Positions 753-21,854 of a stretch of 32,000 nt of DNA are shown piece by piece (within the stretch, counting starts at the first letter, position 1; each line of letters opens with the position of its first letter). Below the pieces are notes generated by a model. The model saw nothing but the letters and a program-made list of their open reading frames with translations, was not told the DNA's origin and ran no database searches. The translations under genes and the position numbers were made by a program. This stretch comes from Methanocaldococcus jannaschii DSM 2661 (GTDB lineage: Archaea; AGJL01; Methanococci; Methanococcales; Methanocaldococcaceae), in NCBI RefSeq assembly GCF_000091665.1, contig NC_000909.1, positions 90,001 through 122,000 on the forward strand, read 5' to 3'.

Positions 753-799
753 GATTTCCCTTGGAACTTTTTATAAACGTTTAGATGGAAACTGTTAGG

Positions 800-1041
800 T
801 TTTCATTACCGAAGCTACGCTTTGGTTAAATAAATCCTAACGGATTTGTAGCTCTTCGCTCCGCTCCGATTAAATGAAAACTTTTTGAGTTTTTGTAGCC
901 AGAATTGAAACTTTCTGTTTCATCAAAATTTTTATGAGCATCCCTCGTAGAAAGGGATTCCAACCTATTGGACATTAATTGCCCCTGTAAGGGGCAACTT
1001 AATGGACATGTGATATCCCAATAGGAGGCATCCTCCTATGG
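800..1041. repeat. Modular GC-hairpin chain element, copy A (left boundary approximate)
   Basis: Chain of short perfect hairpins: aaatcc/ggattt 832-847, atccct/agggat ~939-959, ttggacattaatt-gcccctgtaaggggc-aacttaatggac 968-1007, and terminal cccaataggagg-cat-cctcctatgg 1017-1041. Modules recur at 7186-7425, 11642-11833 and 20260-20333. Confidence 0.75.
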
Positions 1042-1044
1042 TAT

Positions 1045-1476
1045 TTAAATCATTCTTATTGGTCTTATAGCACCACAAGCCATACATTTGAGTAAATGAA
1101 CTCTTCCCTCCTTAATAATCTTGGTATCTGGCTTACCGCACTCTCTACAGATAACATACTCCCTCAAGAAGTCATTAATTCTTGATTTTAATAACTCTGG
1201 GCTGATTCTTCTCTGTAAGATTAATCTACCTCCCTCTAAGTTACCAGCACTACCAGTCTCTTTTAAAAGATACTTAGCAAAGAATTCCTCATCTCTATTA
1301 ACTGCCTTAGCCAACTCTCTAAAGTTTCTTATTATTGTTCTATTTCCTTCTATCAAAATCTCAATTTCTGGAAGTTCAAATCTATCTTTTTGGAAAACGT
1401 AATCTGGAATCTGACTTCTTGCTCTCTTTAATAATGCCTTATAATCATAATAGTCAATATTTTCAAGGTCGCTCAT
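1045..1476 (-). CDS. eif2b: Translation initiation factor aIF-2 beta subunit
   Basis: 143 aa ORF with a C-terminal zinc ribbon (CRECGKPDT...CMACG) and the typical aIF2-beta N-terminal helix region. GGTGA Shine-Dalgarno 7 nt upstream of the ATG. Confidence 0.95.
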   Translation of the reverse strand: MSDLENIDYYDYKALLKRARSQIPDYVFQKDRFELPEIEILIEGNRTIIRNFRELAKAVNRDEEFFAKYLLKETGSAGNLEGGRLILQRRISPELLKSRINDFLREYVICRECGKPDTKIIKEGRVHLLKCMACGAIRPIRMI

Positions 1477-7160: not shown

Positions 7161-7185
7161 AATAAAATGGTGCCGAGGGAGGGAT
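7161..7185 (-). pseudogene. Displaced copy of the tRNA-Met 3' end (T-loop to CCA plus trailer)
   Basis: tggtgccgagggagggat at 7168-7185 is identical to 7426-7443, the 3' terminus of the intact tRNA-Met. The aataaaa trailer is also shared. Confidence 0.8.
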
Positions 7186-7425
7186 ACAAACGAAACTTTT
7201 AGAAAAAGTTAAACAAAATCTTTCAGATTTTGTAGCCCGAAGCTAACGCTTCGGTTAAATGAAAACTAAAAGAGTTTTCATAGCTGGAAAGCGTAGCTTT
7301 CCATTTCATCAAAATAGGATGCATTGCCTCGCTACGCTCGGCAATGCCTCTTAAAAGAAAGTGGGGTTGCCTCTGGCAACCCTGCTCTGAGTATCCCAAT
7401 AGGGCGAAGCCCTATGGAATAAAAA
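7186..7425. repeat. Modular GC-hairpin chain element, copy B (about 7 hairpins)
   Basis: Hairpins ccgaagc/gcttcgg 7237-7254, gaaaact/agttttc 7261-7279, tggaaagc/gctttcca 7284-7302, gcattgcc/ggcaatgc ~7321-7347, gggttgcc/ggcaaccc 7363-7383, and terminal cccaatagggc-gaa-gccctatgg 7395-7417. Confidence 0.8.
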
Positions 7426-7537
7426 TGGTGCCGAGGGAGGGATTCGAACCCTCGACCTCCCGGTTTCCCAGGACCCAGGCGTAAAGCCTGGGATATCCGT
7501 ATGAGCCGGGCGCTATAACCAGCTAAGCCACCTCGGC
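7426..7537 (-). tRNA. tRNA-Met (CAU, elongator) with a ~35-nt intron after position 37; CCA encoded
   Basis: Minus strand reads GCCGAGG...GCGCCCGGCTCATA[CGGATATCCCAGGCTTTACGCCTGGGTCCTGGGAA]ACCGGGAGGTCGAGGGTTCGAATCCCTCCCTCGGCACCA. Acceptor, anticodon and T stems all pair. The intron carries a 7-bp hairpin. Confidence 0.93.
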
Positions 7538-7628: not shown

Positions 7629-7716
7629 GCGGGGGTCGCCAAGCCAGGTCAAAGGCGCCAGATTGAGGGTCTGGTCCCGTAGGGGTTCGCGGGTTCAAAT
7701 CCCGTCCCCCGCACCA
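7629..7716 (+). tRNA. tRNA-Leu (GAG), long variable arm, CCA encoded
   Basis: GCGGGGGTCGCCAAGCCAGGTCAAAGGCGCCAGATTGAGGGTCTGGTCCCGTAGGGGTTCGCGGGTTCAAATCCCGTCCCCCGCACCA. The cloverleaf pairs correctly. The anticodon loop is TTGAGGG. Confidence 0.93.
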
Positions 7717-7724
7717 AATATTTG

Positions 7725-7802
7725 ATAGCGGGTTAGAAGAGGCATTGCTTCCATTAGGAAGCAATGTATCCTGGGTATAGCAATAGGGCGAAGCCCTATG
7801 CT
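7725..7802. repeat. Modular GC-hairpin element, short copy E (2 hairpins)
   Basis: gcattgcttcc-atta-ggaagcaatgt at 7742-7767 and caatagggcgaagccctatg at 7781-7800. The second hairpin has the same apex as copy B. Confidence 0.7.
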
Positions 7803-7830
7803 TTAAACCCCATCCCCCGCACCAAATATT
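7803..7830 (+). pseudogene. Displaced copy of the tRNA-Leu 3' end (T-loop to CCA plus trailer)
   Basis: aaaccccatcccccgcaccaaatattt versus genuine aaatcccgtcccccgcaccaaatattt (7698-7724), ~25/27 identical. Confidence 0.8.
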
Positions 7831-7957
7831 TTGAGCTTTTTTTAATTTGGACAATATTAGTAACTGCAAAATCTTCTTTTAGAATAATAATAACCCAATA
7901 TAACAAGATTGTTTAAATTGTTTTTAATTAATGTAAATATTTGAATGTTGTGGGATT

Positions 7958-9259: not shown

Positions 9260-11234
9260 AAGTGGTGATAGCTTGAATTTAGTTGATTTATACGTAAAGA
9301 AATTCATGGATTTGATTGAGATTGAGAGAAGATGTGAGATGGATTTTCATAAAAATGAGATTATTAAATTAGGCAAAAAGAGAGAGAATGTTGGAAGAGC
9401 AATTTTAAATTTAAAAGGGAAATTTTTAGGAGAGAGCTTAGGTTGCACCATTGTAAGATTTGGGAGAAAAAAGCCATTTAAAACAGAAATATCTCCGGGA
9501 GACGTTGTTTTAGTTAGTAAAGAAAACCCATTGCAGAGTGATTTATATGCGAATGTCATATACGTAGGAAAGAACTTTATAGATGTTGCCTTTGATGTTG
9601 ATGTCCCAAAATGGGTTTATAAAGAAAGAGTAAGAGTTGATTTATACGTAAATGACATAACATTTAAAAGAATGAAAGAAGCTTTAAGAGAATTTGCAAG
9701 AAAGAGGGATAAATTAGCTTATATAATATTAGGCATTGAACACCCAGAAAAACCTTTAAGAGAGGACATCAAATTAGAGTTCTATGATAAAAATTTAAAT
9801 GAATCACAAAAATTAGCAGTTAAAAAGGCAGTTTTAAGTAGGGATTTGTATTTAATTCACGGCCCTCCAGGAACTGGAAAGACAAGAACTATAACAGAGG
9901 TTATCGTCCAAGAGGTTAAATTTAACAAACATAAGGTTTTAGCTACAGCAGATTCAAACATAGCAGCAGATAACATCTTAGAGTACCTAATAAAAAAATA
10001 TCCAGATTTAAAAGTTGTTAGGGTAGGGCATCCAACAAGGATTTCAAAGGATTTGATTCAACACTCTCTCCCCTATCTAATTGAAAATCATGAGAAATAT
10101 CAAGAAATCCTAGCTTTAAGAGAGAAGATTAAAGAAATTAAAGAACAGAGGGATAAATTTTTAAAGCCCTCCCCAAGATGGAGGAGAGGAATGAGTGATG
10201 AGCAGATTTTAAAAGTAGCTAAAAGAAAGAAATCCTACAGAGGGATTCCTAAGGAAAAAATCGTTAGTATGGCAGAATGGATTATAAGAAATAAAAAGAT
10301 TAAAAGAATCATCAATAATTTGGATGAAATTACTGAAAAAATCATGAATGAGATTTTAGCAGAGGCAGATGTTATCGTAGCAACAAACTCTATGGCTGGT
10401 TCAGAAATTTTGAAAGGCTGGGAGTTTGATGTGATTGTTATTGATGAAGGAAGCCAAGCAATGGAGCCTTCTTGCTTAATTCCAATTGTTAAAGGAAGAA
10501 AGCTAATCATGGCTGGAGACCATAAGCAATTACCACCAACAGTTTTAAGTGAGAATGAAGAGCTAAAAAAGACTTTATTTGAGAGATTGATTAAAAAATA
10601 TCCAGAATTTTCATCAATATTGGAGATTCAGTATAGAATGAACGAAAAAATCATGGAATTCCCAAATAAGATGTTTTATAACAACAAATTAAAGGCAGAT
10701 GAGAGCGTTAAAAACATCACTTTATTAGATTTAGTTAAAGAGGAGGAGATTGATGAGGTTGATAGAGATATTATAAACGAAATCCCAGTTCAATTTATAA
10801 ATGTTGAAGGGATTGAAAGGAAAGATAAAGAATCTCCATCTTATTACAACATAGAAGAGGCGGAGAAGGTTTTAGAGATAGTTAAAAAACTTGTAAAGTA
10901 TAAGATACCAACAAACGTTATAACTCCTTACGATGCCCAAGTTAGGTATTTGAGGAGGTTGTTTGAAGAGCATAACATAGACATAGAGGTTAATACAGTA
11001 GATGGATTCCAAGGAAGGGAGAATGAGGCTATAGTTATCTCATTCGTTAGAACAAAGAACTTTGGATTTTTGAAGGATTTGAGGAGGTTGAATGTTGCCA
11101 TAACAAGAGCTAAGAGAAAGCTAATTTTGATAGGCAATGAAAATCTATTGAAGCAAGATAAAGTCTATAATGAAATGATAAAGTGGGCAAAATCTGTTGA
11201 AGAAGAACACAAAAATAAAATTATCCAAAAATAA
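9243..11234 (+). CDS. Superfamily 1B helicase, Upf1/DNA2-like
   Basis: GPPGTGKT (Walker A), VIVIDEGSQ (motif II), GDHKQLPP (III), TVDGFQGRENEAIVISFVR (V), NVAITRAKRKLILIG (VI). The track start at 9243 is TTG and overlaps the upstream stop by 17 nt. The first ATG is at 9306, so the start is uncertain. Confidence 0.9.
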   Translation: MQNWFKSGDSLNLVDLYVKKFMDLIEIERRCEMDFHKNEIIKLGKKRENVGRAILNLKGKFLGESLGCTIVRFGRKKPFKTEISPGDVVLVSKENPLQSDLYANVIYVGKNFIDVAFDVDVPKWVYKERVRVDLYVNDITFKRMKEALREFARKRDKLAYIILGIEHPEKPLREDIKLEFYDKNLNESQKLAVKKAVLSRDLYLIHGPPGTGKTRTITEVIVQEVKFNKHKVLATADSNIAADNILEYLIKKYPDLKVVRVGHPTRISKDLIQHSLPYLIENHEKYQEILALREKIKEIKEQRDKFLKPSPRWRRGMSDEQILKVAKRKKSYRGIPKEKIVSMAEWIIRNKKIKRIINNLDEITEKIMNEILAEADVIVATNSMAGSEILKGWEFDVIVIDEGSQAMEPSCLIPIVKGRKLIMAGDHKQLPPTVLSENEELKKTLFERLIKKYPEFSSILEIQYRMNEKIMEFPNKMFYNNKLKADESVKNITLLDLVKEEEIDEVDRDIINEIPVQFINVEGIERKDKESPSYYNIEEAEKVLEIVKKLVKYKIPTNVITPYDAQVRYLRRLFEEHNIDIEVNTVDGFQGRENEAIVISFVRTKNFGFLKDLRRLNVAITRAKRKLILIGNENLLKQDKVYNEMIKWAKSVEEEHKNKIIQK

Positions 11235-11580: not shown

Positions 11581-11641
11581 AATACCACCAAAATACCAAT
11601 TCGAAAGTTTTAGCATATTCAAACAATATAAAATCTTCAGA

Positions 11642-11833
11642 TTGGACATTAATTGGGACTGAAAGTCCCAACTTAATGGACGTGTGGTATCCACACCATA
11701 AAGGGGCTACGCCCCTCTTGGGATACTCCCCTAATATTGCTAATTTACACCTCCGAGCATAAGCGAGGAGGTGTTAGGTTTTGATGAACCTTTTACTAAA
11801 AGGTTCATACCAATAGGAGGTTTCCTCCTATGG
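11642..11833. repeat. Modular GC-hairpin chain element, copy C (6 hairpins)
   Basis: ttggacattaatt-gggactgaaagtccc-aacttaatggac 11642-11681, gtgtgg-tat-ccacac 11682-11696, aggggc-tac-gcccct 11702-11717, acacctcc...ggaggtgt 11748-11775, atgaacctttt-act-aaaaggttcat 11783-11809, ccaataggagg-ttt-cctcctatgg 11810-11833. Confidence 0.8.
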
Positions 11834-11836
11834 TAG

Positions 11837-12553
11837 TTAAATGTACATTGGATATTCCTTTCTACTCTTTGACATCATCTTTAAATGTTGCTCTGCCAGT
11901 TCTTTAAGTTTGTTTTCAATAGCTTCAGCCTCTTTGATGAGATTTTCAATATTTACATTTAGATTGAACATTTTATTCAAAACCTCTAATAGATTAGCCC
12001 CCCCTCTTGGGTCTGGTCTAATTCCAACAGTTTCAGCCAACAAACCAATAGCATCAAACCCATTGTCATGGCATTTTATTAATAAATTTCCCCCCATTCC
12101 TCCCACAACTCCAAAATCAAATATTTCAACATAATTTTTTAAATCTTCTATCAACTCTTCTTTATTTGCTATTCCAAATACTTTTTCTGATTTTCCTGCC
12201 ATTATTCCTCCAAGAGAAACAAATAGTTTTGGATTTTTGTTTGAAAATGTTTTAACTATAAACTCCGCCAATCCATTAATCTTAAATGGAGAGATTATTA
12301 TATCTGAAAATAAAATAATAAAATCTTTGTTTGCATACGCTCTCACTGGAGGGTAGGGAATGCCTTTCTCAATAGTTGTGAGTGGAAGGATTCCATCAAC
12401 TTCAAAGTATCCAAAATATTTTAGGTTTAGGTCTTTTATTATTTGAAAACCTGCTATGCTTCCAACTAATCCAGTTCCAGGAAATGCTTCAATAACTATG
12501 GGATTTTCAAACTCTATTTTTGCTTTTTCTACGAACTTCATACTATCCACCAA
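11837..12553 (-). CDS. PAC2 (proteasome assembly chaperone 2-like) family protein
   Basis: 238 aa. The N-terminal IVIEAFPGTGLVGSIAG pattern is typical of the PAC2/COG1938 family. C-terminal coiled-coil tail. Confidence 0.75.
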   Translation of the reverse strand: MVDSMKFVEKAKIEFENPIVIEAFPGTGLVGSIAGFQIIKDLNLKYFGYFEVDGILPLTTIEKGIPYPPVRAYANKDFIILFSDIIISPFKINGLAEFIVKTFSNKNPKLFVSLGGIMAGKSEKVFGIANKEELIEDLKNYVEIFDFGVVGGMGGNLLIKCHDNGFDAIGLLAETVGIRPDPRGGANLLEVLNKMFNLNVNIENLIKEAEAIENKLKELAEQHLKMMSKSRKEYPMYI

Positions 12554-12732: not shown

Positions 12733-14298
12733 ATGAAAATTCTAATAATCACTGGAAAATTAGCTGAAAGGAAAGTTAAAGATGCTGTGAAAAAATATGA
12801 TTTTATAGATGTGCATGTAGCAAATATCTCTGTAGCTGCTTTTTTAACACCTAATTTAATAATTAAAGAAATTAAAAAATTAGAAAACAAATTAGGAAAA
12901 AAATTAAAAGATATTTATGATTTTGTTTTAGTAACTGGGTTGATAAGACATGATTTAAAGAATGTTGAGGAAGAAACCGGAATAAAATGCTTTAAATCTA
13001 CAAGAGAAGCTTCTGATATTCCAATATTGATTGAAAATCTGGATAAGATAAAACTATCAACTAAAGAGTATGCCGATTTGCAGTTATTAGAAATTATTAG
13101 AAAGAAATGTGAGGAGGAGATTAAGAAAGCAGAGGAGCAGGAATTAGGAGAAGGAGATATAAAGATAGGCAAATTAAAAGTTGGAGATAAATTCCCAATG
13201 AGAGTTTTGGGAGAGATAGTCCATGCCCCATGGCTAAAAGAGAAAGAGTTGGAGGAGAAAATAATATATTACTTAGAAAGTGGGGCTGATATGATTGATT
13301 TGGGAATGGTTAGCAATGAAAATAATGCAGATAAAATTAAAGATATGCTAAAGATAGCGAGAGATTTAACTGACAATCCAATTAGTGTAGATACATTAAA
13401 CACAAAAGAATTAATTGAGGCAATAAATTTAGGGGCAGATATGATTTTGAGTGTTGATGCTGGGAATTTAGATGAGCTAATTCCATATTTAAAAGATTCA
13501 GAAACGGCAGTTGTTGTTCTGCCAACAAATTATAAAACAAACTATGTCCCAGAGACTATTGAAGGCAAAATTAAATCCTTAGAGGAGAATATAAAAAAGC
13601 TAATAGATGCTGGAATTGAAAAAATAGTTGCTGACCCAATATTAGAGCCAATAAACAATGCCGGATGCAGTTTTATAGAGAGCGTTATTGCATGTAGAGA
13701 ATTTAAAAAAAGAAATAAATTGCCACTATTTTTTGGTGTTGGAAATGTTACAGAGCTTTTTGATGCTGATAGTAATGGAGTCAATGCTTTGTTAGCAGCT
13801 ATTGGGGCTGAGATTGGAGCTAATATATTATTTACACCAGAGGCAAGTGCTAAGTGTAAATTTTCAATAAAAGAGTTAAAGATTGCCTCAAAGATGATGT
13901 TTTTGGCTAAAAAAAGGAACTCTCTGCCAAAGGATATTGGCTACAATTTGATAAATTATAAGGATAAAAGATTTGAGGAGGAAATAACCTTCAATAGTTA
14001 CAATATCCCAATAATTAAAGCTGAAGAAGATGAGAGGCAGATATTGGATGAAGGAAGTTTTAAAATAGAAATTGATAGGAAGAACAAAGAGATAGTAGCA
14101 ATATACTTTAATAAAAGAAGAGAACCAGTTTTAATAATTAGAGGAAAGAAACCAAAAGAAATTTATGAAACCGCGATAAGATTAAATTTAATAAAAAAGT
14201 TAGACCATGCATCTTATTTTGGTAGAGAGTTAGCTAAGGCAGAGATTGCTTTAAGGATAGGTAAAAAATACAATCAGGACTTTGATTTGTTCCTATAA
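12733..14298 (+). CDS. Pterin-binding (dihydropteroate synthase-like TIM barrel) domain protein with N- and C-terminal extensions
   Basis: Central region has DHPS-like strings GADMIDLG, ISVDT and GADMILSVD. The track start at 12721 is TTG. ATG at 12733 follows GAGGGAG, so I prefer it. Confidence 0.6.
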   Translation: MKILIITGKLAERKVKDAVKKYDFIDVHVANISVAAFLTPNLIIKEIKKLENKLGKKLKDIYDFVLVTGLIRHDLKNVEEETGIKCFKSTREASDIPILIENLDKIKLSTKEYADLQLLEIIRKKCEEEIKKAEEQELGEGDIKIGKLKVGDKFPMRVLGEIVHAPWLKEKELEEKIIYYLESGADMIDLGMVSNENNADKIKDMLKIARDLTDNPISVDTLNTKELIEAINLGADMILSVDAGNLDELIPYLKDSETAVVVLPTNYKTNYVPETIEGKIKSLEENIKKLIDAGIEKIVADPILEPINNAGCSFIESVIACREFKKRNKLPLFFGVGNVTELFDADSNGVNALLAAIGAEIGANILFTPEASAKCKFSIKELKIASKMMFLAKKRNSLPKDIGYNLINYKDKRFEEEITFNSYNIPIIKAEEDERQILDEGSFKIEIDRKNKEIVAIYFNKRREPVLIIRGKKPKEIYETAIRLNLIKKLDHASYFGRELAKAEIALRIGKKYNQDFDLFL

Positions 14299-16479: not shown

Positions 16480-16530
16480 CTAAGATTTCTTCATCTCTTC
16501 CTTTATTTTAAGATAGGTTATCGGTATCGC
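16480..16530 (-). pseudogene. Displaced, diverged copy of the last 16 codons plus stop of the PQ-loop gene
   Basis: Minus strand reads AIPITYLKIKEEMKKS*, versus the genuine C-terminus WIPITYLKIRDEMRKS* (16611-16661). 40/51 nt identical with no indels. Differences are silent or conservative (K/R, E/D). Confidence 0.7.
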
Positions 16531-16610
16531 AAGCATATAGAGGAACCTCTATTACTATACTCCGAGTGGGCTTTACTATGTTCAGCCCCACTTTCTATAT
16601 TTAGCTTTCA

Positions 16611-16892
16611 TTAAGATTTTCTCATCTCATCTCTTATTTTCAAATAAGTTATCGGTATCCAAAACATTAAAGACAAAATGTTAAATACTATTATTGGGTA
16701 ATCATTTCTTAATATTCCATATATTAACCAGAGTGTCAGTCCAGTTGTGAATGTTATAACAAAAGCTAATGAGATGTTGCTCATATCTTTCTCCTTCAAA
16801 GACTTTATTAATTGGGGGAGAGATGCAAAGGTTGTTAAAGTTCCAGCAATATAGCCGATAACAGTTATATCAAAGTCCATATTAATCACCAC
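16611..16892 (-). CDS. PQ-loop / SemiSWEET-like small membrane protein (3 predicted TM helices)
   Basis: 93 aa with three hydrophobic segments and an LPQLIKSLKEKD PQ motif after TM1. Confidence 0.7.
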   Translation of the reverse strand: MVINMDFDITVIGYIAGTLTTFASLPQLIKSLKEKDMSNISLAFVITFTTGLTLWLIYGILRNDYPIIVFNILSLMFWIPITYLKIRDEMRKS

Positions 16893-18148: not shown

Positions 18149-18251
18149 AAATCCAAACTATTAAATTTATTTCTATTTTTTTAGAAACTAAAAGAGTTAA
18201 AAATTTAGTTCCTATTTTTCAAATTTATTGAATTAGACTAAATAAAAAATT

Positions 18252-18352
18252 ATTTTTATTCCATATTGGTCTGATTTTAATGAAATGTTTATTCTTGGAG
18301 AGCCACACATTATTTGTGATGAGTTTCCATTCCGAATCGGTCTGATTTTAAT
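18252..18352 (-). CRISPR. Mini CRISPR array 2: one canonical repeat, one spacer, one degenerate terminal repeat
   Basis: Repeat gtttccattccgaatcggtctgattttaat at 18323-18352. Degenerate copy atttttattccatattggtctgattttaat at 18252-18281. Spacer of 41 nt. The leader homolog follows directly. Confidence 0.8.
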
Positions 18353-18544
18353 TCTTTTAATATTTAAAATTTTCTCCCTTTAATAAAACAGAGCATTCTT
18401 ATCTCCTTAAATTCAAAAATTTAACTTATTAGTTAGAGAAATCTTATTTAGATAATTATTTAATTTTTATTTTTAAAAATCTGAATAATTCAATAAACTC
18501 AAATATTCTAAATAATCAAACCAGCAAACCCTTAGAAATTAAAT
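18353..18544 (-). promoter_or_regulatory. CRISPR leader, second copy
   Basis: 18361-18544 aligns with 2640-2824, including caaaccagcaaacccttagaaattaaat. Confidence 0.75.
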
Positions 18545-18690
18545 TTAAAACCTCTAAATAAATAATTCCTAAATACTCTTATTTTCAAAATCCAAACATA
18601 TTCAACAAGACAATCAATAAACCAAACAACAAAATCAGAAATTCCAAACCTACAATTTTTCTTTTTTATAAAAATATTTAAATAATGTAT

Positions 18691-20157: not shown

Positions 20158-20211
20158 TCTATCACCTTTAGATTAATAATTACAATTATATTACAATTTT
20201 ATGCCTTTGCC

Positions 20212-20244
20212 ACAATCTAATCGTAGTTGTTGGTGTTTATCTTA
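20212..20244 (-). pseudogene. Displaced, diverged copy of the cdhD 3' end
   Basis: 20212-20244 versus 20338-20370 is 27/33 identical. The fragment reads KINTNNYD*, the gene reads KLNTNNYEWIVSP*. Differences are mostly third-position. Confidence 0.65.
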
Positions 20245-20259
20245 CGTATTTAACTAAGC

Positions 20260-20333
20260 TTGGACATTAATTGGGGCTGATAGCCCCAACTTAATGGACG
20301 GGAGGTATCCCAATAGGAGGTCTCCTCCTATGG
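20260..20333. repeat. Modular GC-hairpin element, copy D (2 hairpins)
   Basis: ttggacattaatt-ggggctgatagcccc-aacttaatggac followed by tatcccaataggagg-tct-cctcctatgg. The last 6 nt overlap the final Pro codon and TAG stop of cdhD. Confidence 0.8.
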
Positions 20334-21545
20334 GCTGACAATCCACTCATAGTTGTTTGTGTTTAGTTTAACCTCTCCTGGCTTGGTTGTTAGAGTTTTT
20401 CCAATCTCTTTCAGTGTTTTAACTGATATTGGATTGAGCATCATGAATAAATCTACTCCACACATCATCATCGTAATTCCAGTAGTTATTTCCCATAATG
20501 GTAATCTATACTCTCTTGGCCCCCATTCAGGATTGTTCATCCATGCCTCTCTTGCTCCAATAGCGTTTGTTGTTCCAGATGACATTGGCATATTAACCAA
20601 CTCATCTCCCTTCAATCCATTTAATCTTAATCTAACCATTGCGTTGATTGAGAACTCAATCCCATAACCTAAAGCACATGTTGTTGGATCCATAACTATT
20701 CTATTTGGGTCCAAACCAGCTTCAACAAGTTTTCTATTTAAATCTCTCGCCATATTTGGGTCCATAATACTCCATGCTAATACGTTGTGGTCATATTTCA
20801 TAGCTGCATCAACTATCTTTTTATAATCCAACTCCAAGTTTGCTGAAGCTAATAAGCATCTATCTCCTTCTGCTACTTCAGCACATGCTTCCAAAACTAA
20901 AGGGTCTTTTTGAGGATTTCCACTACCTCCAATAACAAATGGAACATCAACTGCCTGTAATAAATCTTCCATTAATTTTGCAGCTTCTTTTGGACTTTTA
21001 TCTTTAATTTTTGGGTCTGTGGAGATGTGGTGAATTGTTATCATATCTGCCCCAAATTCTTTAACACACTTCTTTGCCCATTCGCAAGGGTCTTCCATAA
21101 CATCCTGGAAAAACTGCCTAATTGGTTTTGGTAATCCTGGCATTGGTATATCGAATATATCGAAAGTAACAACTGGTGGATTTGGCTGTGGTTCTTCAAA
21201 TCTATATAAAGCTCTCTGTCCCCCAATTTTCACAACTTTTCCTCTTCCTCCTTCTGATTTTGGTTTTCCAAATTGGACTTCTCTTATATATCCAGGATAT
21301 TTTTCAACTGGTGGTTCCCAATCTAACTCTGGGACATCTTTAATTTCTATAATTCCTTCTTCAGCCAATTTTTCTTTTATTGATGGTGTTTGAGGAATAA
21401 CTATTGGAGGGGCTGATGGGATATTTATAATTAATTCATCTGCGGTGATTTTTATATCCTCAATCTCAATTCTACCAACTTTTTCAATGATTTTTATCAA
21501 AGTATTTAAATCCATAACCTCACCCAATCTGTCATTATAAATCAT
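20328..21545 (-). CDS. cdhD: Acetyl-CoA decarbonylase/synthase delta subunit (corrinoid/Fe-S protein small subunit)
   Basis: 405 aa with a pterin-binding-like TIM barrel region (ADMITIHHISTDP...). Paired with cdhE. Confidence 0.92.
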   Translation of the reverse strand: MIYNDRLGEVMDLNTLIKIIEKVGRIEIEDIKITADELIINIPSAPPIVIPQTPSIKEKLAEEGIIEIKDVPELDWEPPVEKYPGYIREVQFGKPKSEGGRGKVVKIGGQRALYRFEEPQPNPPVVTFDIFDIPMPGLPKPIRQFFQDVMEDPCEWAKKCVKEFGADMITIHHISTDPKIKDKSPKEAAKLMEDLLQAVDVPFVIGGSGNPQKDPLVLEACAEVAEGDRCLLASANLELDYKKIVDAAMKYDHNVLAWSIMDPNMARDLNRKLVEAGLDPNRIVMDPTTCALGYGIEFSINAMVRLRLNGLKGDELVNMPMSSGTTNAIGAREAWMNNPEWGPREYRLPLWEITTGITMMMCGVDLFMMLNPISVKTLKEIGKTLTTKPGEVKLNTNNYEWIVSP

Positions 21546-21765: not shown

Positions 21766-21854
21766 GGCGCGGGGTACCGGGCTTGGTAGCCCGGGGCGGA
21801 CTTCAGATCCGTCGAGGGCGAGAGCCCTCGGGGTTCGATTCCCCCCCTGCGCCG
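21766..21854 (+). tRNA. selC: tRNA-Sec (UCA), 9-bp acceptor / 4-bp T stem, CCA not encoded
   Basis: GGCGCGGGG...CGGACTTCAGATCCG...long GC extra arm GAGGGCGAGAGCCCTC...GGGGTTCGATTCCCC...CCCTGCGCC-G. The acceptor pairs over 9 bp with one G-U. Anticodon TCA. TATA-like ttttatatatt lies ~45 nt upstream. Confidence 0.9.

Follow-up and report, generated by a model that had tools for sequence, protein, structure and literature searches.

A hairpin chain at the aIF2-beta stop codon of Methanocaldococcus jannaschii as a probable pile-up of small mobile palindromic elements

Palindromic repeats of Methanocaldococcus jannaschii were published by Suyama, Lathe and Bork in 2005 and, as far as the papers citing that work relate (PMC2229807, PMC2996958), some copies lie in frame inside genes. 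Palindromic repeats in frame inside housekeeping genes are also found in Rickettsia, as the Rickettsia palindromic elements (RPE) (PMC2996958). Long direct repeats of variable length, from 8 to 514 bp, are made on insertion by the insertion sequences (IS) IS1549/IS1634, and the IS1634 family is common in Euryarchaeota, with no model proposed for its long duplications (PMC2266710). Replitron-1 is a second precedent for long variable duplications. Here we describe a chain of hairpins that fills the gap behind the gene for aIF2-beta in a stretch of 32,000 nucleotides (32 kb) from M. jannaschii DSM 2661 (contig NC_000909.1, positions 90,001 to 122,000), the whole of which is called the window and contains six hairpin-element loci. 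The chain has probably piled up from small mobile DNA elements that are non-autonomous and of the M. jannaschii palindromic-repeat class.

The likeness to the repeats reported in 2005 lies in the shared genome, the palindromic structure, the mostly extragenic location, the length of about 100 bp and the presence of some in-frame copies, here in related genomes (L001 and L010; handles of this form denote related loci). The hairpin family is already known in that it belongs to the reported class of M. jannaschii repeats, an assignment made by description. The FEBS Lett paper of Suyama, Lathe and Bork from 2005 reportedly sorts 141 elements into three groups, MJRE1-3, and its abstract is said to make no mention of duplications. 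A literature search, which did not cover the 2005 MJRE paper, found no description of the long gene-end duplications that are reported below. A first-pass annotation of the window knew of no equivalent described in archaea, which does not stand given the published repeats, at least as they are cited in PMC2229807 and PMC2996958.

The features of the aIF2-beta locus are the following.

1045..1476, minus strand: aIF2-beta (MJ0097), open reading frame (ORF), exact protein match to AAB98077.1
761..1044, plus strand: whole inserted block of 284 bp, delimited against the empty allele
966..1044, plus strand: P+T two-hairpin unit of 79 bp, the best conserved and youngest part of the chain, with sharp family boundaries
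1015..1041, plus strand: T hairpin, the family's invariant right end, TATCCCAATAGG-AGGCATCCT-CCTATGG, bearing a bulged A
968..1007, plus strand: P palindrome, TTGGACATTAATTG-CCCCTGTAAGGGG-CAACTTAATGGAC with a bulged C
930..965, plus strand: orphan hairpin (atccct-cgtagaa-agggat at 941-959)
781..929, plus strand: older hairpin modules with few relatives (one to three)

The aIF2-beta gene ends in the codons ATT TAA, with the TAA at 1045-1047, the T hairpin at 1015-1041 is separated from this stop codon by only the three nucleotides TAT, and beyond the hairpin block the next minus-strand gene has its start codon at 752. Both the fold and the coordinates confirm that a hairpin chain fills the gap after aIF2-beta with its terminal hairpin 3 nt from the TAA, as the first-pass annotation had proposed, whilst the inserted block, measured against the empty allele, is 761-1044 and not the 800-1047 it gave. 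Nor are all the hairpins perfect, as it had called them: a bulged A is conserved in T and a bulged C in P. Folding the minus strand of 760-1060 gives -83.5 kcal/mol, compared with -58.1 ± 4.5 for its shuffles (z = -5.67), with 0 of 100 shuffles as stable, and the 79-nt terminal unit (966-1044) forms, as DNA, two hairpins on either strand (z = -4.3 and -4.8). For the hairpin region Rfam gave no family at the gathering threshold, and a cut-off of E <= 1 brought up nothing more than an enod40 match without meaning.

That the block was inserted is observed directly in relatives. In L025, a metagenome-assembled genome with an identical aIF2-beta protein, the site is empty and only 8 nt lie between the stop codon and the next start. 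This allele reads ATGATTTAA/GGGAAATTATGG, the slash marking the junction and GGGAAAT following directly past it, compared with ATGATTTAA/ATACCATAGG ... GTTCCAA/GGGAAATCATGG in the filled allele of M. jannaschii, where 761-1044 are extra relative to L025. Empty orthologous sites, which the first-pass annotation had suggested looking for, are found in L025 and L164-L167, with L026-L034 being filled. Amongst the relatives with an empty site are Methanocaldococcus sp. FS406-22, M. bathoardescens and two other contigs, with spacers of 8-9 nt, and strain 16A has a 22-nt spacer without the hairpin block. At the same stop site another Methanocaldococcus lineage (L169-L174; about 1933-1979 in L169) has an unrelated, non-repeated and AT-rich insert of 47 nt.

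The chain is not of one age. For comparison, genomes were scanned for the P palindrome and metagenomes for the T hairpin, with M. jannaschii itself represented by the window alone. The P+T unit of the aIF2-beta chain has more than 45 homologues in the sampled Methanocaldococcus DNA, and its boundaries are sharp, with coverage going up at 966-968 and down at 1041-1045. Within the window 968-1041 matches 20260-20333 at 81% identity (E = 2.5e-15) and 11641-11692 at 83%. For the orphan hairpin at 930-965 there are no homologues in the sampled DNA, 781-853 matches L054/L091 at 78%, and 825-929 matches window positions 7208-7315 at 72%. As homologue coverage is this uneven along the chain, it is apparent that one well-conserved unit sits beside older, decayed modules.

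The basic unit of the family is about 65-80 bp long and consists of two hairpins, the constant T on the right and one of several alternatives on the left (P, H2, H3 or H4). The consensus of T, in which a bulged A is conserved, is GGG-TAT(A/C)CCAATAGG-loop-CCTATGG, and T loops are often GCGAAGC, GCGGAGC or GCGTAGC, which we take to be of the type of the classic, very stable DNA mini-hairpins. The left hairpins are TTGGACATTAATTG...CAACTTAATGGAC for P, with its conserved bulged C, AAGAGGCATTGCC...GGCAATGCATCC for H2, TTTACACCTCC...GGAGGTGTTA for H3 and GTGGGGCTGAACGTAGTGAAGCCCC for H4. Composites that run from a left hairpin to T are found repeatedly as whole blocks, and the modules within a chain are mostly co-oriented. 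A census of T hairpins gave 149 matches, which reduce to 113 contexts and 76 independent insertion events. Nesting also occurs, with duplications of 20-21 nt within an H1 hairpin, and in L063, L071, L078, L105 and L128 the right arm of P contains, about 130 nt upstream of T, an element resembling a MITE (miniature transposable element with inverted repeats), of about 125 nt with perfect 16-bp terminal inverted repeats (TIRs) TAACCAATTATCAAAG and a central hairpin TAGAAGCCCTTTGGGCTTCTA. This nested element explains why different strains can have different left hairpins at one target.

Insertion is most clearly seen where filled and empty alleles can be set side by side, and there are ten such pairs: those of the window with L025, L163 and L012, six more, and an independent empty allele for the site of L004 in L056. 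In seven cases the reconstructed empty site agrees with a real empty allele. L004 and L125 have flanks that are 100% identical over 240 nt, with L004 carrying a 115-nt insert together with a perfect 40-bp duplication. Target duplication is widespread, as a direct repeat to the left of the element and to the right of T exceeds the 99th percentile of the null in 56 of the 81 contexts outside CRISPR (short palindromic repeats, clustered and regularly interspaced), the null being taken from mismatched flanks (mean 9.2, 99th percentile 16.4). In nearly all duplicated contexts the right copy of the duplication starts 0-6 nt past CCTATGG, and the end of the left copy is mostly 40-47 nt away from T, one hairpin upstream. 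The length is about 20-63 nt, with many duplications of 46-57 nt and identities such as 55/55, 51/52, 50/51, 40/40 and 36/36. H2 units mostly have an exact left junction with 0-5 nt of filler, and some copies have an AT-rich left filler of up to about 40 nt. No filler common to independent insertions was seen, most being of 0-5 nt, and a donor for the 38-nt filler of the recent L004 insertion is absent from the sample. Inspection by eye showed no microhomology of CCTATGG with the sequence that precedes the duplication. It was also considered whether the outer boundary of the duplication is an RNA 3' end, which was rejected for mRNAs, whose T-runs lie 5-15 nt beyond the boundary.

The duplicated piece is often the end of a gene. 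In 18 of about 40 events outside CRISPR the left copy of the duplication ends between -10 and +12 nt of a co-directional stop codon, compared with 4.9% of random positions in the same loci (p = 1e-13, genes being approximated by ORFs), in agreement with the bias to gene 3' ends that had been suspected from the first copies. The bias persists where there is no ORF within about 20 nt past the duplication, thus short spacers alone do not explain it. What is duplicated is the last 20-63 nt of the gene, a pseudo-copy of which lies beyond the element, and because of this the gene stays whole and the element comes to lie directly at its stop codon. Where the cut lies within the gene by a few codons, the stop codon comes from the element, as in cdhD below. 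A scan of 777 ORF 3' ends that were not preselected for elements found 65 with a downstream pseudo-copy; from a reading of the listing, about 20 of these are artefacts of CRISPR repeats and nearly all the others enclose hairpin elements. The orientation with the left hairpin beside the stop codon is found 18 times and the opposite one about 6 times (p = 0.023), with the aIF2-beta, MJ0106 and cdhD copies belonging to the minority, their mRNA carrying the complement of the better-folding strand.

The other five copies in the window are these.

11621..11836, plus strand: second chain, comprising P (11642-11681), a T in inverted orientation, hairpins of the H3 and H1 types and a T at 11807-11833
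20209..20370, plus strand: third copy, at the 3' end of cdhD, with P+T at 20260-20333 and an empty allele in L012
7164..7449, plus strand: fourth chain, with elements at 7192-7417 and the final T beside the 3' end of a minus-strand tRNA
7694..7831, plus strand: fifth copy, located downstream of tRNA-Leu, with H2+T as its unit (7724-7801)
16481..16667, minus strand: sixth copy, an H4+T' unit at 16537-16611 directly past the stop codon of ORF 16611..16892

The second chain repeats the junction at aIF2-beta almost exactly, as the first-pass annotation had noticed: its hairpin ends at 11833, TAG follows, and TTA at 11837-11839 is the stop codon of MJ0106 (ORF 11837..12553), 3 nt away. In FS406-22 the MJ0106 site is empty and reads ACATTTGA/ATAATTTTATTTTTGGTGATATTATG, with ATAATT past the junction, and its gap is 23 nt compared with about 255 nt in the window. 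The composite at 11642-11817 shares 86% identity with copies from L006 and L012. Like that of aIF2-beta, the MJ0106 and CdhD proteins of the window match M. jannaschii DSM 2661 entries exactly. The string ATTTAA shared by the two junctions had been thought to place the element boundary inside the gene end, an idea that falls because the empty alleles of L025 (ATGATTTAA) and FS406-22 (ACATTTGA) keep this gene end; ATTTAA is therefore gene sequence, both genes ending in Ile and a stop, with ATT TGA in FS406-22.

At cdhD the 3' end of the gene is duplicated, with copies of 36 and 37 nt (20209-20244 and 20334-20370; P < 0.0005), the working stop codon is now within T at 20328-20330, and the old stop codon is kept in the pseudo-copy at 20200-20209. 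CdhD ends in ...NNYEWIVSP* in M. jannaschii and in ...NNYDWIVAKA* in the related genome L012, and is 405 aa long compared with 406 aa in most of the listed Methanocaldococcus orthologues. Judged from these sequences, the insertion of P+T is what rewrote the C-terminus of CdhD.

On either side of the fourth chain lies a copy of 28 nt from the tRNA 3' end (7164-7191 and 7422-7449), and the fifth copy likewise has 30 nt of the tRNA 3' end with its trailer duplicated around it (7694-7723 and 7802-7831). These two tRNA-adjacent duplications resemble attL/attR pairs yet enclose only 78-230 bp. At 7429-7537 lies a 109-nt tRNA match, probably intron-containing and miscalled by ARAGORN, and at 21766-21853 there is a tRNA-Sec gene. 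The sixth copy, which is absent from the first-pass annotation (16537-16611, minus strand), is flanked by a 56-nt gene-end duplication that is 80% identical, 16612-16667 being the working copy and 16481-16536 the pseudo-copy. Cognate duplications are thus present at four of the six window elements (cdhD, the two beside tRNAs, and ORF 16611..16892), and no swapped half-sites were found among the window elements. The window also has a 33-nt inverted repeat (10599-10631 and 13013-13045) that is 82% complementary, its two arms being separated by 2.4 kb and located within coding DNA or close to it.

Gene 3' ends are certainly not the only targets, as copies are also found at gene 5' ends (L004, L014), at tRNA 3' ends, in CRISPR repeats and in the hairpins of other elements. 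At the 5' ends, a very recent insertion is seen in L004 (5864-5978) when compared with L125 (5340-5579), with a 38-nt AT-rich filler in which a stretch resembling a TATA box (CTCTATATATTATG) lies upstream of the displaced start codon by about 45 nt. In L014 it is the filler that brings both a GGTG motif and a new ATG. These cases suggest that survival at gene 5' ends is limited to insertions that bring a promoter or a start codon. A P+T unit lies in frame in a BioB-like radical-SAM ORF of 357 aa (L001 5807-6880) and in a methyltransferase ORF of 244 aa (L010 4066-4800), adding the peptide (G)TLIGAESPNLMDVGYSNR in both, and these in-frame copies are without a long duplication, having at most about 9 nt.

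P+T units are also found in the CRISPR repeats of many arrays (L003, L006, L007, L012, L013, L023, L060, L065, L072, L096, L103 and others), with about 19-24 nt of the repeat (AAATCAGACCTCTTGGAGG) duplicated around the unit; the left copy stops 8 nt short of the end of the repeat, which is presumably where Cas6 would be expected to cut. These copies are either many independent hits or one insertion that was spread by array duplication. The window itself has two CRISPR loci, at 2294-2532 and 18247-18355, on opposite strands and with two repeat types (Rfam CRISPR-DR13 and DR39), and a 217-nt repeat present at both (2628-2844 and 18349-18565, 82% identical) looks like a shared leader.

The structure of the hairpins is conserved beyond their sequence. 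P stems have 98.9% of their cells paired over 19 distinct sequences, with two-sided changes at three apical pairs (GC to CG, AU and UA), and T stems are 99.1% paired with three pairs changed on both sides; for both, 0 of 500 shuffles reached the observed covariation, although the loci were ascertained by P or T patterns and the conserved parts of those hairpins are fixed by this ascertainment. The stem apexes GCCCC/GGGGC, GGGGC/GCCCC and GGGAC/GTCCC, which the first-pass annotation took as a sign that structure is conserved, are as it described them and the stems do covary. Covariation alone is no proof of a selected function, since self-templated correction of a palindrome can yield compensatory change. 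In 79 of 102 units the strand running left to right towards T folds better than its complement (p = 2e-9), and this asymmetry indicates that one strand matters, as single-stranded DNA or as RNA.

It could be supposed from this that the hairpins are kept for a role in RNA, as elements of the 3' untranslated region (3'-UTR) that stabilise or end the upstream mRNA much as repetitive extragenic palindromic (REP) sequences and bacterial interspersed mosaic elements (BIMEs) would. Covarying stems, the better fold of one strand and the roughly threefold excess of that strand in mRNA amongst gene-end insertions (18 vs about 6, p = 0.023) all fit such a role, yet we consider it unlikely. At aIF2-beta, MJ0106 and cdhD the mRNA bears the complementary strand, the sites are empty in close relatives with an identical or near-identical gene, and copies are also located upstream of genes, in CRISPR repeats, beside tRNAs and in frame in coding regions. 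On the sense strand of aIF2-beta hairpins are followed by more hairpins, with no T-run or U-tract, and archaeal termination depends on U-tracts and aCPSF1, not on hairpins (PMC7515710); the covariation itself can also come from template-switching self-correction of palindromes without selection. The comparison with REP/BIME-like 3'-UTR elements made in the first-pass annotation therefore holds for the chains, the covariation and the position at gene ends, and does not hold in that these are mobile insertions with target duplications and many other sites. An effect of the elements on the mRNA 3' end is secondary at most, for which the orientation bias and the strand asymmetry leave room.

Insertion without any dedicated transposase would make the elements by-products of host repair or replication, for instance through template switching, or through fill-in of a staggered break that lies at a gene boundary and captures one of the abundant hairpin fragments. 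Such an origin is quite unlikely in our view, whilst it would accommodate the wide range of duplication length (about 20 to 63 bp), the AT-rich left filler of up to about 40 nt in some copies, the non-repeated 47-nt insert with its duplication of about 23 nt at the aIF2-beta site of another lineage, and an enzyme gene that was not found, no transposase-directed search having been made. It fits poorly with the exactness of the junctions, the right one lying within 0-6 nt in nearly all copies and the left one of H2 units mostly within 0-5 nt, with the lack of microhomology at the right junction (by eye), and with the 777-ORF scan, in which nearly all gene-end duplications enclose hairpin elements and not random DNA. 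Very improbable is the idea that the direct repeats are integrase attachment sites and the hairpin blocks remnants of integrated plasmids or viruses, for although the tRNA 3'-end duplications of 20-32 nt do resemble attL/attR pairs, dozens of unrelated targets are duplicated, only 65-390 bp lie between the repeats and always of the same element family, and the pattern was not found in a viral contig collection, where searching for P gave chance, non-palindromic matches only.

The reading of the chain as a pile-up of small mobile elements must itself be set against a number of observations that weigh on the other side. The aIF2-beta and MJ0106 copies have no target duplication above that of shuffles (P = 0.84-0.93), and the mobility of these two rests on empty alleles and family membership. 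In L169-L174 the 47-nt insert, which forms no hairpin, has about 23 nt of the aIF2-beta end duplicated around it, a hint that the step that makes duplications may not be exclusive to hairpin elements. A duplication length that is not fixed is unusual for a stagger made by an enzyme, and no motif was found at the duplication boundaries beyond a weak AA|T preference. Up to 6 kb to the left of each T there is no autonomous partner, only chains of at most 390 bp; no transposase turned up at the loci, although no search directed at transposases was made, and the hairpin units have no TIRs. Gene-end statistics used ORFs in place of genes, and most of the related loci are metagenome contigs, in which repeats may give chimeric assemblies. 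One such case may be L112 and L120, with an identical left flank and H4+T unit and different right flanks (a tRNA 3' end and the end of a protein gene), which reflects either recombination between element copies or a metagenome chimera at the repeat. Another feature of the ends is that those on the left, (C/A)TAAGAGGCA, AATTTACACC, AAAGTGGGGC and GATTGGACATT, are not complementary to the right end CCTATGG.

Even so, the pile-up of mobile elements remains the probable reading, and a mechanism can be proposed for it. Insertion itself, the sharp boundaries, the long target duplication and the bias to gene ends are shown by the observations above. Units, or composites from a left hairpin to T, insert at gene edges, mostly duplicating 20-63 bp of the target, and chains such as 761-1044 would grow through repeated and nested insertion. 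Recognition of the hairpins on one DNA strand may fall to a trans-acting enzyme that joins the element to widely staggered target cuts 20-63 bp apart, with purifying selection perhaps keeping only those insertions that regenerate a gene end. As a tentative proposal, which we rate as somewhat short of an even chance, this could amount to a mode of transposition without TIRs, with an exact right end defined by a hairpin and cuts 20-63 bp apart where genes, tRNAs and CRISPR repeats have their boundaries, in which a putative new or domesticated hairpin-recognising recombinase of Methanocaldococcus makes insertions that rebuild the gene end. If this is true, a stop codon, a start codon or a promoter could even be newly provided by an insertion.

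What may be novel is the signature of insertion, the long and variable duplications that regenerate gene ends. It would explain how a compact hyperthermophile genome, 88% of it coding, tolerates well over a hundred insertions, and the elements rewrite protein C-termini, as in cdhD, and possibly supply start codons or promoters. The sharp end at the T hairpin offers a handle for finding the enzyme, as do insertions in vent metagenomes that are recent and polymorphic and the genetic tractability of the host.

Compared with known systems, the elements are like REP sequences, BIMEs and REPINs in being GC-rich imperfect palindromes with conserved bulges and a short tag at the foot of the hairpin, of high extragenic copy number, forming mosaics or chains and having covarying stems. 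They differ in that REPs are without target duplication, compared with 20-63 bp here, that BIMEs alternate in orientation whereas the modules here are mostly co-oriented, and that the foot tag of T, GGGTAT(A/C)CC, contains GTAT and not GTAG or CGTC. The bacterial systems also go with a REP-associated tyrosine transposase (RAYT, TnpA-REP), whilst the host here is an archaeon; no kb-sized insert bounded by hairpins was found at the sampled loci, where no RAYT-directed search was made.

With MITEs (archaeal SM elements, Correia, ERIC and RUP) they share small size, lack of coding capacity, many copies, filled and empty alleles, target duplications and nesting, and both are presumably mobilised in trans. 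Unlike MITEs the hairpin elements have no TIRs, their two ends being different hairpins, and their duplications are long and variable compared with 2-10 bp, with no parent insertion sequence seen; the TIR-bearing MITE nested in P looks quite unlike the P+T units. The RPEs are alike as in-frame palindromic repeats, and differ in being bacterial and unrelated in sequence, and we know of no long target duplications or docking at stop codons for them. A parallel for the duplications is IS1549/IS1634, as the hairpin elements also make long direct repeats of variable length, with the difference that those elements are of 1.5-2 kb and have inverted repeats and a DDE transposase, none of which was seen linked to hairpin units, where no transposase-directed search was made. 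To our knowledge only few mobile elements make long variable duplications, none of them with a mechanism put forward so far, and the hairpin elements of Methanocaldococcus probably join them.

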